From assembly GCA_000004695.1 (NCBI GenBank), contig CM000153.2, positions 4,192,001 to 4,256,000 of the forward strand: a DNA stretch of 64,000 bases. Reading direction: 5' to 3'. The notes beneath the pieces were generated by a model. The model was given only the letters and a program-made list of their open reading frames with translations, was not told the origin of the DNA and did no database searches. Positions within the stretch are counted from its first letter, which is position 1. Each line of letters starts with the position of its first letter. Positions 47,634 to 50,645 of the stretch are shown piece by piece. Made by a program: the position numbers and the translations under genes. This stretch comes from Dictyostelium discoideum. Lineage: Eukaryota.

Positions 47634-50600
47634 ATGGAAATTTTAGATAAAATGGATGAACAAATGGTAGAAAATTCAATTATTAACAATGAAAAAGGTT
47701 TAAACATGAATGGTCATGACATTAATCACCAAGAAATATTTAATAGTAATAGTAATAATTGTAATAATAAAAGAAAACTCTCATCCAATTTTGAAGAAGA
47801 AATTGATGGTGCGAATCATCATCAAATAATTAATAACATTACAAATGGTAATGATCATCAACATTGTAATGGTAACGGTAATGGTAATGATCATCAAAAT
47901 GGTAATGGTAATGGTAATGGTAGCATTAAAAAAAAACAATGTATGGCTATAACTACAACAACTACAAGTAATTGTAGTAGTGGTGGTGTTGGATATAGTA
48001 ATAGAGTATTATCAAATATATTAACCATAAAAATACTCAAATATTCAATTAAATTATCACTACTTGACAATACACATGAGCAATTTACAGAGACATTATC
48101 ATTGGTTTGCAAATCATGGAATTTATTCATTATACCAAAATTAAATTTATCAAGATATAGATTCAATAATGATGATTACTTATACACATATTTAAAAGTT
48201 CAAGATATGTGTAAAGGTTTAATTAATAGAACTACACCAACACCAGAATACGAATTAGCGGGTAATCAAACATTAGAAGGTTTATTCAATAGTTTATTCG
48301 TTTCACCTTATAGTTTTGGTATTCATGAATTTAAAATTGGTTCCGTTCCACAAGTTGAACAACAACAACAAGAACAAGAACAAGAACAAGAACAACAACA
48401 AGAACAACAAGATGATGAACAACAAAATGAATATAATGAAGATGATGAACAAAATGGTTACGATGAAAATAATAATAATAATAATAATAATAATAATAAT
48501 AATAATAATAATAATAATAATAATAATAATAATAATAATAATAATAATAATAATAATAATAATAATAATAATAATAACGAAGATGGAGAGCAACAACAAA
48601 ATTATGATGGACAACAACAAGACCAACAACAACAACAAAATTATGATGGACAACAACAAGACCAACAACAACAACAAAATTATGGTGGACAACAACAACA
48701 ACAACAACAACAACAACAACAACAACAACAACAACAACAACAACAACAACAACAACAACAACAACAACAACAACAACAACAACAACAACAACAAAAACAA
48801 GAACAACAACAAAATGACGAACAGCAACAACATAATTATGGTGAACAACATCAACATCAACAACAACAACAACAACAACAACAACAAAACTACGGTGAAC
48901 AACAACAAAATTACCATCAACAACAACAACAACAAAATTTTAGTGAACAACAACAAAATGATGATCAACAACAACAACAACATTATAGTGAACAACAACA
49001 AAATGATGATCAACAACAACAAAATTTTAGTGAACAACAAAATGATGGTCAACAACAACAACAACAACAAAATGACGAAGGTGAACAACAAAATGACGAA
49101 CAAGAGCAAGAACAAGAACAAGGACAAGAACAAGAACAAGAACAAGAACAAAATAATGAAACTAAAAATGAACAAGAAGCACCAAAGATTGATTATGGAG
49201 TTTATATTGATGGAGAAGATTGTGGAACAATTTTTCAACCAGATATTGAAAAGATTTTATCAAAGTCAAAAGATTTTTATACAACAGATGATAATATGGG
49301 TACAAATAAAGGTATGGCAATTGCATTATCAAGATTAAAGATTCCTGCATTTGAAGTCTATGGTGAAAAGGATGTTATCTTTTATAAGGATCAAGTTTAT
49401 CATAGTGCACAAACCAATTTTAAATTGGTATTGAATAAAATGCATATTTCAATGCCTGGTAAAGAAAATAATTTACAAATTCAACCTGATAATGGTGACT
49501 TAATTAAAACGTATGTAGGCTCATTCTTGGTATCATTGGGTATTGATGCCTATACAGGTGGTGAAATCGTCATCACTGGTAATGGTGGTTCATTCGAGAC
49601 AAGTAATAGAACCTCACATTATAGAATTGAATCGGTTCAATCGTTTAAGAAAAGAGATGAACTAATGGAACAAATTATAGATTTAGAACAGTACCTATCA
49701 AATATTCGGGAAGAGTCTATTAAAAACGGTACTTCGGAATGTGAGCATATTATACTTCAACAGAAATCAATTCAATCAAGAATTAGACAATTGCAATTGG
49801 AGGCAGAGATTCAAATATTCCACTTTAGATGGTTGGCTTTCTATCAAGGTTGTGTGGCTCAAACACTTCAACCCGTTACAAGTGGTTATAGAATTATCTT
49901 ACATTTTAATGTATACTTTAACCATTTGGAACGTGAAGAGGACTTTAAAATCATAAGAGGGGTCGATAGAATTAGAGTTTCAAGTGAGAATAATTATCAA
50001 CATCCAGAGGGTGAGAATGATAATCAACAAGTGAAAGAGATTATTAACTTTTCCAATGAAAATCAGTTCCTAAGATTGAATGCATACCAAAACAGAACTT
50101 TTAATTGCAGTAAATTCGTTCTTGGTCAAGTACCTGTAATTTTGGAGAAGATCATTAAATTGGAAACTGAAAAGAATCCATCGACTCCAATTAACATTGG
50201 TATCATTTTAAATAACCTTTATAAATCTTCAAATATTAAAAATCCATTACATTTTCATCAACTTCAAGATTTTGATCATATGGTTTTAAATAAATTAAAG
50301 AGTCATTTCGGTGATGATAATGTAAAGGTTTGCTCATTCTTAATTCACTTCCCAAAGCCATTCGTACCTCAAATCGATGAGGATGATGAAGATGCTCAAC
50401 CTCCACCACCTCAAAATCCTGAAGATTTAAAACCAAGAATTGAAATGATAAATGCTAAAGTAGTTAATGGTTTCAATAGAGTTATGAAAGATACTAAAAC
50501 TTTATTATTTTTAAGTTCTTCAAAATATTTAGATTTAAAAAGTATTCATTCAAAACCAATTATGACAAATGATTCACAAGAATTTGAAGAAGTTGGTTGT

Positions 50601-50645
50601 TTTTCTGCAATCATGGTATTAAATGATAAAAATAATAAAAAATAA
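47634..50645 (+). CDS. F-box-like protein (1003 aa) with extreme poly-Asn, poly-Gln and Glu/Gln-rich low-complexity core and a structured C-terminal domain
   Basis: An F-box-like segment is present (ILKYSIKLSLLDNTHEQFTETLSLVCKSWNLFI). (AAT)n about 48470..48580 and (CAA)n about 48690..48790 are in frame. The C-terminal ~430 aa are non-repetitive (..YIDGEDCGTIFQPDIEKIL..GGEIVITGNGGSFETSNRTSHYRIESV..). Confidence 0.65.
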   Translation: MEILDKMDEQMVENSIINNEKGLNMNGHDINHQEIFNSNSNNCNNKRKLSSNFEEEIDGANHHQIINNITNGNDHQHCNGNGNGNDHQNGNGNGNGSIKKKQCMAITTTTTSNCSSGGVGYSNRVLSNILTIKILKYSIKLSLLDNTHEQFTETLSLVCKSWNLFIIPKLNLSRYRFNNDDYLYTYLKVQDMCKGLINRTTPTPEYELAGNQTLEGLFNSLFVSPYSFGIHEFKIGSVPQVEQQQQEQEQEQEQQQEQQDDEQQNEYNEDDEQNGYDENNNNNNNNNNNNNNNNNNNNNNNNNNNNNNNNNNNNNEDGEQQQNYDGQQQDQQQQQNYDGQQQDQQQQQNYGGQQQQQQQQQQQQQQQQQQQQQQQQQQQQQQQQQQQKQEQQQNDEQQQHNYGEQHQHQQQQQQQQQQNYGEQQQNYHQQQQQQNFSEQQQNDDQQQQQHYSEQQQNDDQQQQNFSEQQNDGQQQQQQQNDEGEQQNDEQEQEQEQGQEQEQEQEQNNETKNEQEAPKIDYGVYIDGEDCGTIFQPDIEKILSKSKDFYTTDDNMGTNKGMAIALSRLKIPAFEVYGEKDVIFYKDQVYHSAQTNFKLVLNKMHISMPGKENNLQIQPDNGDLIKTYVGSFLVSLGIDAYTGGEIVITGNGGSFETSNRTSHYRIESVQSFKKRDELMEQIIDLEQYLSNIREESIKNGTSECEHIILQQKSIQSRIRQLQLEAEIQIFHFRWLAFYQGCVAQTLQPVTSGYRIILHFNVYFNHLEREEDFKIIRGVDRIRVSSENNYQHPEGENDNQQVKEIINFSNENQFLRLNAYQNRTFNCSKFVLGQVPVILEKIIKLETEKNPSTPINIGIILNNLYKSSNIKNPLHFHQLQDFDHMVLNKLKSHFGDDNVKVCSFLIHFPKPFVPQIDEDDEDAQPPPPQNPEDLKPRIEMINAKVVNGFNRVMKDTKTLLFLSSSKYLDLKSIHSKPIMTNDSQEFEEVGCFSAIMVLNDKNNKK

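Follow-up and report, generated by a model that had tools for sequence, protein, structure and literature searches.

Locus and domain organization

The gene studied here, DDB_G0286243, lies in a 64,000-nucleotide window of the Dictyostelium discoideum genome (NCBI GenBank assembly GCA_000004695.1, contig CM000153.2, positions 4,192,001 to 4,256,000 of the forward strand), to which all coordinates below refer. Its C-terminal half is, as judged from sequence comparison, a diverged member of a dictyostelid family that combines an F-box-like module with a prolyl 4-hydroxylase (P4H)-like 2-oxoglutarate (2OG)/Fe(II) oxygenase domain. The open reading frame (ORF) occupies 47634..50645 on the plus strand and runs uninterrupted through 1003 codons and a stop codon in a single exon, in agreement with the coordinates and peptide strings of a first-pass annotation made from the DNA alone. 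The start codon stands in the context AAAATG downstream of A/T-only DNA, and the GC content is 21-34% over the whole ORF, including its repeat core, versus 8-14% in the flanks. The gene identifier rests on the F-box-like sequence, which matches the entry DDB_G0286243 in supplementary Figures S3 and S4 of Boland et al. (2022; PMC9485057). An exact look-up with four alternative start codons found no entry for the exact protein in the protein collection. The protein encoded by the downstream ORF (51076-52413, plus strand) is identical in every residue to DDB_G0286245 of D. discoideum AX4.

The first-pass annotation had proposed a search for orthologues in other dictyostelid genomes, and this yielded two orthologues as well as the dictyostelid paralogues described below. 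Orthologous single-exon ORFs are present in D. dimigraforme (KAN0040208, P0001; 835 residues, L001 10001-12508) and D. citrinum (KAN0012186, P0010; 886 residues), and the C-terminal region of both is 96% identical to that of DDB_G0286243. The D. dimigraforme locus is syntenic, and the orthologue there lies between an upstream Pyr_redox gene and a downstream E1_dh gene. It was the only match in a single-sequence word-indexed homologue search. The ratio of nonsynonymous to synonymous substitutions (dN/dS) was obtained from a codon-level comparison of D. discoideum and D. dimigraforme, with dS at ~0.5-0.6 throughout (cited as ~0.56). It is 0.21 in the leader (residues 1-115), 0.085 in the F-box-like module (116-240), 0.42 in the alignable part of the Q/N core and 0.033 in both the first and the second half of the C-terminal region. 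Therefore, both folded parts are strongly constrained and the core is not. The length of 1003 codons, the GC contrast with the flanks, the orthologous ORFs in two species and the dN/dS of 0.03 together indicate that this is more than a chance ORF. Two overlapping ORFs (48303-49238, minus strand; 48316-49338, plus strand) were rejected as genes, as they are poly-L/I/N read-through of the core repeats in other frames. A paralogue inside the window was also rejected, since tblastn with five relatives matched DDB_G0286243 only. The layout of the gene is as follows.

47634..50645, plus strand: complete coding sequence of DDB_G0286243 (ORF list, translation, GC content, orthologues)
47634..47978, plus strand: N/G/H-rich low-complexity leader, residues 1-115 (by composition; indel-rich between species)
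47979..48353, plus strand: conserved N-terminal module, residues 116-240 (F-box-like motif and ~60 conserved residues downstream)
48000..48167, plus strand: F-box-like sequence, residues 123-178, NRVLSNILTIKILKYS[IKLSLLDNT]HEQFTETLSLVCKSWNLFIIPKLNLSRYRFN
48351..49178, plus strand: Q/N/E/D-rich disordered linker, residues 240-515 (by composition and tandem arrays)
48468..48578, plus strand: poly-Asn run of 37, residues 279-315, a perfect (AAT)n repeat (Tandem Repeats Finder, TRF)
48690..48794, plus strand: poly-Gln run of 35, residues 353-387, (CAA)n
49179..49943, plus strand: predicted degenerate P4H-like 2OG/Fe(II) oxygenase (double-stranded beta-helix) domain, residues 516-770
49476..49499, plus strand: position of the former HxD iron-binding motif, Q615-I-Q-P-D-N-G-D622
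49626..49817, plus strand: predicted helical-hairpin (coiled-coil) insertion of ~60 residues, residues ~665-728
49851..49892, plus strand: distal-His/2OG-Arg strand, C740-V-A-Q-T-L-Q-P-V-T-S-G-Y-R753
49944..50642, plus strand: family-specific C-terminal extension, residues 771-1003, covered by no Pfam model

The leader contains a (GGTAAT)n-type array with 36-nt and 6-nt periods (47843-47922) that encodes NGNGNG...DHQ and is shorter in D. dimigraforme.

Homology of the C-terminal region to 2OG/Fe(II) oxygenases

The complex C-terminal region comprises 488 residues (516-1003) and is larger than the ~430 residues given in the first-pass annotation. Exhaustive scanning of 1.84 billion representative proteins with phmmer gave seven further matches (E ≤ 0.001), six of which are relatives; the remaining one (P0008), second weakest of the seven, is a repeat protein of no relation and probably a false match. 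The six relatives are the following.

P0003: D. purpureum XP_003287105/6, two tandem copies (E = 1e-31)
P0004: D. citrinum KAN0018403 (E = 6e-22)
P0005: Thecamoeba transcriptome (E = 9e-19)
P0006: Cavenderia fasciculata DFA_03637 (E = 4e-7)
P0007 and P0009: two unnamed eukaryotic sequences (E = 1e-5 and 3e-4)

The gathering score of 27 of PF13640 (2OG-FeII_Oxy_3) is exceeded by P0003, P0004, P0007 and P0009 with 30-35 bits (34.7 for P0003 and P0004), and further relatives reach it or come near it. DDB_G0286243 is collinear with P0003 and P0004 over its whole length, with identities of 46-52% in the N-terminal module (E = 3e-21 and 5e-19) and of 27-30% across ~500 columns in the C-terminal region (E = 5e-41 and 1e-31). 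The C-terminal region was assigned to this family because it is homologous to proteins that pass the PF13640 gathering score and because of this collinearity with P0003 and P0004. The first-pass annotation had regarded this region as not assignable to a family and as the best candidate in the window for something undescribed, which does not hold in view of the E-values of 1e-31 and 6e-22 to PF13640 proteins; assignment to a well-known fold or family was the very outcome that this annotation had named as refuting its view.

Profile comparisons agree with this assignment. A hidden Markov model (HMM) of the family, built without the target, scored DDB_G0286243 with 54.8 and 14.0 bits, and hhalign against the bacterial subfamily gave 87.9% probability (E = 3e-6) on the distal-His/Arg segment. 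Among solved sequences, PiuC-type PKHD hydroxylases were nearest to the family profile, aligned over HxD...H...R. No JmjC or Cupin Pfam match was found in the target or its relatives; the relatives match PF13640. A PDB sequence search with the C-terminus returned only coiled-coil noise from the helical insert (HEXIM1, Miranda; E > 0.1), and neither the target nor the bacterial relatives have a match in NCBIfam. The predicted structure of the region shows a double-stranded beta-helix fold of the P4H-like type.

Loss of catalytic residues

Metal ligands were compared with those of 24 intact relatives, all of which have the HxD motif, the distal His and the Arg that follows it. The corresponding HxD segment in DDB_G0286243 is LQIQPDNGD, in which the positions of H and D are taken by Q615 and Q617 in the MAFFT alignment and by P618 and N620 in the HMMER alignment. 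Neither alignment places a His in this segment, which is identical in all three orthologues. The distal segment CVAQTLQPVTSGYR keeps C, P, V, T, G and R753 of the family consensus DC.H.V.PVTSG.R, and the His is replaced (A742/Q743). R753 (PVTSGYR) falls in an invariant column in all alignments and, by alignment to PiuC-type hydroxylases, is the predicted residue that binds the C5-carboxylate of 2OG. At the 39 family columns that are conserved at ≥85%, the target keeps 21, mostly scaffold (GG, AF.C, PVT.G.R, L, N, Y), and differs at 18. The losses include the PxxFGxGxxTxxDxxVR motif near the start of the domain, as well as F, Y, the D before C, and K. These substitutions are all common to the three orthologues.

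The HxD/E...H facial triad of PF13640 is therefore lacking in DDB_G0286243 and, since this triad is what defines the catalytic members, the protein should be classed as a degenerate relative of oxygenases rather than an oxygenase. We infer from the missing ligands that the domain most likely no longer hydroxylates anything.

Two further elements distinguish the C-terminal region. Firstly, one loop of the beta-helix core carries as an insertion a predicted helical hairpin (helices at 156-181 and 188-210 of the model, pLDDT >90; pLDDT, predicted local distance difference test) that is absent from all homologues. In the same loop, the Cavenderia protein P0006 has an unrelated repetitive insertion, rich in S/P/T/Q and several hundred residues long (alignment A1, columns ~700-1045), and this loop looks like an insertion hotspot in the family. 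Secondly, the extension (771-1003) aligns to dictyostelid and bacterial members up to the TGNE(G) motif, which reads MTND in the target, and keeps the conserved residues L, Y863, L877, D881 and N979. The model of the extension is alpha/beta with a pLDDT of ~40-80. Pfam covers the extension in none of the relatives, in which only PF13640 was found.

The N-terminal F-box-like module and Skp1

The N-terminus of DDB_G0286243 is probably F-box-like, as suggested by a weak sequence signal and one proteomic data set. In supplementary Figures S3 and S4 of Boland et al. (2022; PMC9485057) the protein carries the code 'pm' and is a Skp1 interactor with an F-box predicted by a Geneious procedure, in which a 9-residue insert (IKLSLLDNT) lies between predicted helices 1 and 2. 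According to this supplement, 'pm' denotes the slug co-immunoprecipitation (co-IP) with the anti-Skp1 polyclonal antibody UOK77 of Sheikh et al. (2015), that is, detection with one of two antibodies at one stage. The substrate-receptor column is blank for DDB_G0286243 in the supplementary table. Full-text literature searches found no paper for the gene or for neighbouring identifiers, and no main text that mentions it.

We built a Dictyostelium F-box HMM from the 42 UniProt-annotated F-box sequences of the supplementary Figure S3 (PMC9485057). It scored DDB_G0286243 with 10.1 bits, which is weak, and most of the score came from LSLVCKSWNLFI (LSLVCKSW); 1 out of 5000 shuffled sequences reached this value. 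The F-box-like N-terminus noted in the first-pass annotation is thus backed by the published listing and by this match, with the Pfam F-box models giving none. The motif (123-178) precedes the folded domain (516-1003), an order of N-terminal motif and C-terminal domain that is expected of an F-box protein. Across the paralogues, the motif is better conserved than any other part of the N-terminus, with IKILKY...LSLVCKSWNLF common to the target, P0003 and P0004, and the module as a whole has 35 invariant columns among five family members. An AlphaFold model of residues 100-245 predicted helices at the expected places and was unusable (pLDDT 37.2), and a PDB profile search with the module found nothing.

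A near-identical F-box-like motif, NILIIKILDYR[LKSLSHNE]...IQIVCKSWNLFTVNKLNLGKY, is present in another Skp1 interactor in the supplementary Figure S3, DDB_G0278939. This protein has a 'beta-sheet' receptor annotation and PhyA-enhanced binding, and was found independently in Skp1-myc co-IPs, as listed in the supplement (PMC9485057). DDB_G0278939 may be a further member of the oxygenase-type family.

Three other ORFs in the window begin with a degenerate F-box-like motif: 39345-41615 on the plus strand (LSNLIIKRILQF...VKLSLVCKLWAEKVIPYL), a 444-residue ORF at ~23640 on the minus strand (IYLQKYLIKIICNHI...LTLALVCKSWFKTLSNNL) and 51076-52413 on the plus strand (LPIYLLKYIIRIACNY...SISLTCWTFFKTM). 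Two of these score 10.5-13.1 bits with the F-box HMM, none has a Pfam match and all three are unrelated to the C-terminal domain of DDB_G0286243.

The Q/N-rich core is an ordinary linker

The core between the two folded parts comprises 276 residues (240-515), about half of the ~500 residues given in the first-pass annotation, and consists for 69% of Q+N and for 88% of Q+N+E+D. The poly-Asn run of 37 residues had been noted correctly and is encoded by a microsatellite of 36.7 AAT copies with 100% matches (TRF); the longest poly-Gln run is 35 residues and not ~40. Tandem arrays with 3-, 6-, 12-, 39- and 48-nt periods are present, and the 39-nt period array accounts for the QQQNYDGQQQDQQQQQ-type and EQEQ repeats that had also been reported.

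The first-pass annotation had considered Q/N cores of this length unusual even for Dictyostelium. Poly-Asn runs of 29-50 residues, however, occur in at least nine other ORFs of the same window, and the D. discoideum proteome contains nearly 10,000 homopolymer tracts of more than 10 residues, with ~25% of the proteome predicted to be prion-like (PMC13093961). The core has 276 residues in D. discoideum and is shorter in D. citrinum (171) and D. dimigraforme (129); in the intact paralogues the corresponding parts are separated by only 20-60 residues. The N37 and Q35 homopolymers are unique to D. discoideum and absent from both orthologues. Because lengths vary among sister species, the homopolymers occur in D. 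discoideum only and similar poly-Asn is common in the window and the proteome, we regard the core as an ordinary slippage-driven disordered linker that is not exceptional for this genome. It has the long Q/N-rich composition of a prion-like region, and its length, homopolymers and dN/dS of 0.42 lack the conservation that would suggest a selected function.

The possibility that the Q/N region is an intron, which the first-pass annotation had raised, was rejected. The frame is kept in three species despite the length changes and the core is therefore coding; in GC content, too, it resembles an exon.

Long poly-Asn tracts (20-50 residues) are found in most long ORFs of the window, for example at 40977 (N50), 54017 (N42, minus strand), 56921 (N40), 15978 (N35) and 13707 (N31). 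The Q35 of DDB_G0286243 is the sole long poly-Gln in the window.

Comparison with known oxygenases and F-box proteins

The fold of the C-terminal domain is shared with PhyA (the Skp1 prolyl 4-hydroxylase; PDB 6t8m), PHD2/EGLN1, the Pseudomonas putida P4H and the PKHD-type PiuC/YbiX, at 9-13% identity. In contrast to DDB_G0286243, these are active enzymes with an intact triad and have no F-box, Q/N linker or extension. The shared fold implies no specific relationship of the target to PhyA. The combination of an F-box with a JmjC oxygenase domain occurs in human KDM2A/B (FBXL11/10). In Dictyostelium, the JmjD6-like proteins JcdI and JcdH have an F-box-type motif and a double-stranded beta-helix oxygenase domain, as does the target, and JcdI is a catalytically active Skp1 interactor in the same data set, according to the supplement (PMC9485057). 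JcdI/JcdH and KDM2A/B are JmjC-type, whereas the domain of DDB_G0286243 is predicted to be P4H-like (PF13640 lineage) and has no metal ligands. Thus, both the fold and superfamily (P4H-like, PF13640 lineage) and, for JmjC proteins, the architecture of F-box plus 2OG oxygenase are known. An F-box-like module fused to a PF13640-type domain was not found in full-text literature searches.

Proposed function and alternative explanations

We consider it reasonably probable that DDB_G0286243 is a three-part adaptor, in which an F-box-like module on Skp1 is joined by a disordered linker to a dead oxygenase domain that acts as a binding module. The conserved N-terminal module, a degenerate F-box with its 9-residue insert, would dock the protein on Skp1. 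The Q/N/E/D stretch would be a flexible, disordered spacer of arbitrary length and without sequence conservation, which microsatellite slippage generates and resizes. The ligand-less oxygenase domain, with its scaffold and 2OG-binding Arg retained, would bind a partner without modifying it, possibly a proline-containing segment, or 2OG via the retained Arg pocket. It may then form the receptor end that presents the bound partner to a Skp1-containing (SCF-type) complex, and the inserted helical hairpin could provide an extra interaction or dimerization surface. The receptor and binding role is what we infer from this arrangement. A precedent for a binding role of a dead domain is vaccinia C16, which has a catalytically dead PHD2-like domain in which cofactor residues are not conserved and which serves protein binding (PMC9674614). 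C16 (8ag3) was among the weak Foldseek matches of the target; the match was not significant, and C16 is viral, acts in a different partner context and has no demonstrated sequence relationship.

Several results weigh against this reading. Pfam scans of DDB_G0286243, run with the whole protein, its N-terminus and its C-terminal 451 residues, gave nothing meaningful at E ≤ 10 (sole match Spaetzle, E = 0.63), and the D. citrinum orthologue P0010 has no Pfam match either. The structural model of the C-terminal region is only moderate (pLDDT 64.6; pTM, the predicted template modelling score, 0.50). A Foldseek search against the PDB gave no significant E-value; the matches with the highest probability were 2OG oxygenases and P4Hs, interspersed with helical matches from the hairpin insert. 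In the N-terminus, the Pfam F-box and F-box-like models had no match at E ≤ 10 in the full protein or in residues 1-260, and the weak F-box profile score (10 bits) is matched or exceeded by two other ORFs of the window (10.5-13.1 bits). The Skp1 association comes from one proteomic co-IP data set that is known second-hand from a supplementary table. Lastly, because the 2OG-binding Arg is retained, the domain might still bind cofactor to some extent or have an unusual chemistry.

The N-terminal results would fit with a protein that is no genuine F-box protein or SCF subunit, in which the motif is a resemblance only and the Skp1 co-IP was indirect or non-specific; it could for instance be a scaffold that acts via the coiled-coil insert and the Q/N region. 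Such a protein would explain the failure of the Pfam F-box models and of the PDB profile search, the low pLDDT of the module (37), an HMM score of 10 bits that derives mostly from LSLVCKSW, and detection by one of two antibodies at one stage as coded in the supplement. It does not account for the position of the motif ahead of the folded domain, as in F-box proteins, or for the conservation of the motif above all other parts of the N-terminus across the paralogues. The HMM score is moreover above that of 4999 of the 5000 shuffles, and DDB_G0278939 with its near-identical motif came down independently in Skp1-myc co-IPs (supplement of PMC9485057). We regard this explanation as somewhat unlikely.

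If, instead of the dead domain of the adaptor, the C-terminal domain were still an active oxygenase, it would need a non-canonical metal site (Gln/Asp or a recruited His) and could modify a protein bound to the Skp1 complex. In favour of this, the domain retains the beta-helix scaffold, the GG motif and Arg753 and is under very strong purifying selection; Asp619 and Asp622 are close to where the HxD motif used to be, and the intact paralogues point to a catalytic ancestral function. Both His residues that are found in 24 of 24 relatives are, however, absent under every alignment tried, and further invariant positions (F, Y, the D before C, K) are lost together with the PxxFGxGxxTxxDxxVR motif. 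To our knowledge, characterized 2OG oxygenases use HxD/E...H (halogenases HxA/G...H) and never Gln. Activity of the domain therefore seems quite improbable.

The combination envisaged in the first-pass annotation, an undescribed C-terminal domain with an exceptional and functionally important prion-like core, is very improbable. Although the target has no Pfam or PDB sequence match, the last 230 residues are without a Pfam model in any relative and the core is 69% Q+N, this picture conflicts with the PF13640 homology (E = 1e-31) and the P4H-like fold of the model. It also conflicts with a core length that differs more than 2-fold between sister species, both of which lack the homopolymers, and with the frequent poly-Asn tracts in the window. 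A brand-new fold and an exceptional prion domain are no longer suggested.

The adaptor reading bears mainly on Skp1/SCF and protist oxygen-sensing research. Oxygen sensing in Dictyostelium runs via Skp1 prolyl hydroxylation and its set of F-box proteins is poorly defined. The region of a published Skp1 interactor for which the receptor column had been blank can now be described as a predicted degenerate prolyl hydroxylase-like domain, and the F-box-like plus P4H-like proteins would be a second oxygenase-type F-box family beside JcdI/JcdH. A more far-reaching proposal, which we consider unlikely as it stands, is that social amoebae have a previously unrecognized Skp1/SCF receptor class built on a prolyl hydroxylase-type domain. 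The intact paralogues would then be Skp1-tethered hydroxylases, and DDB_G0286243 a dead 'reader' of a proline-containing target or of 2OG. If true, this class would link the recognition of targets, or the metabolite state, to the Skp1 system, which is O2-regulated and controlled by PhyA.

Paralogues and the wider family

The D. citrinum and D. purpureum paralogues (KAN0018403 and XP_003287105/6, all annotated as hypothetical proteins) have the same order as DDB_G0286243 of N-terminal module, linker, P4H-like beta-helix and C-terminal extension ending in ...GCFSAI... Unlike the target, they keep HxD...H, PxxFGxGxxTVYDExVRKG and TGNE and pass the PF13640 cut-off; they also have linkers of 20-60 residues, no hairpin insert and a different locus. 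Both forms occur in D. citrinum, the degenerate gene (P0010) and, at a different locus, an intact paralogue (P0004). P0004 adjoins Prp8 and GH18 genes, and a GH18 gene is likewise found close to the D. purpureum copy. Neighbour-joining places the target clade on a long branch beside the intact dictyostelid copies. Since D. citrinum holds both forms and dN/dS is 0.03, DDB_G0286243 bears the signature of a retained duplicate that lost catalysis, kept a selected function and is not decaying. A decaying duplicate on its way to a pseudogene might likewise show lost catalytic residues and a long tree branch, but is extremely improbable with an ORF intact in three species, a dN/dS of 0.03 and a protein seen by mass spectrometry in the co-IP listed in the supplement (PMC9485057). 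The intact paralogues and DDB_G0286243 provide a natural pair of predicted active and dead forms.

A profile search with the cleaned alignment A3 returned mostly bacterial members and no dictyostelid paralogues. The bacterial members are ~750-790 residues long and annotated as '2OG-Fe(II) oxygenase' or 'YbiX-like'. The bacterial and algal proteins P0011-P0027 (Cupriavidus, Paraburkholderia, Haliscomenobacter; the Chlorella fusion described below) have the oxygenase core and the extension up to TGNEG...WP in common with DDB_G0286243. They differ from it in that they lack the F-box-like module, have an intact triad and carry an extra C-terminal region of ~350 residues; identity is 14-16%. This wider family, which extends from bacteria to amoebae, is functionally uncharacterized, and its extension of ~230 residues has no Pfam model.

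Three minor observations concern the relatives. The two intact D. purpureum copies (XP_003287105 and XP_003287106; P0028/P0029) are 97% identical and lie on one 85-kb contig (GL871029.1). Transcripts of Thecamoeba quadrilineata (P0005, P0032, P0033) are 48-53% identical to the intact dictyostelid paralogues and thus closer to them than the Cavenderia protein is; they could stem from a genuine discosean homologue or from dictyostelid sequences that contaminate the transcriptome. Lastly, in Chlorella vulgaris a family member (D9Q98_010533, P0027) is fused C-terminally to a histone deacetylase (PF00850 and PF13640), which hints that this uncharacterized oxygenase family may act on proteins.

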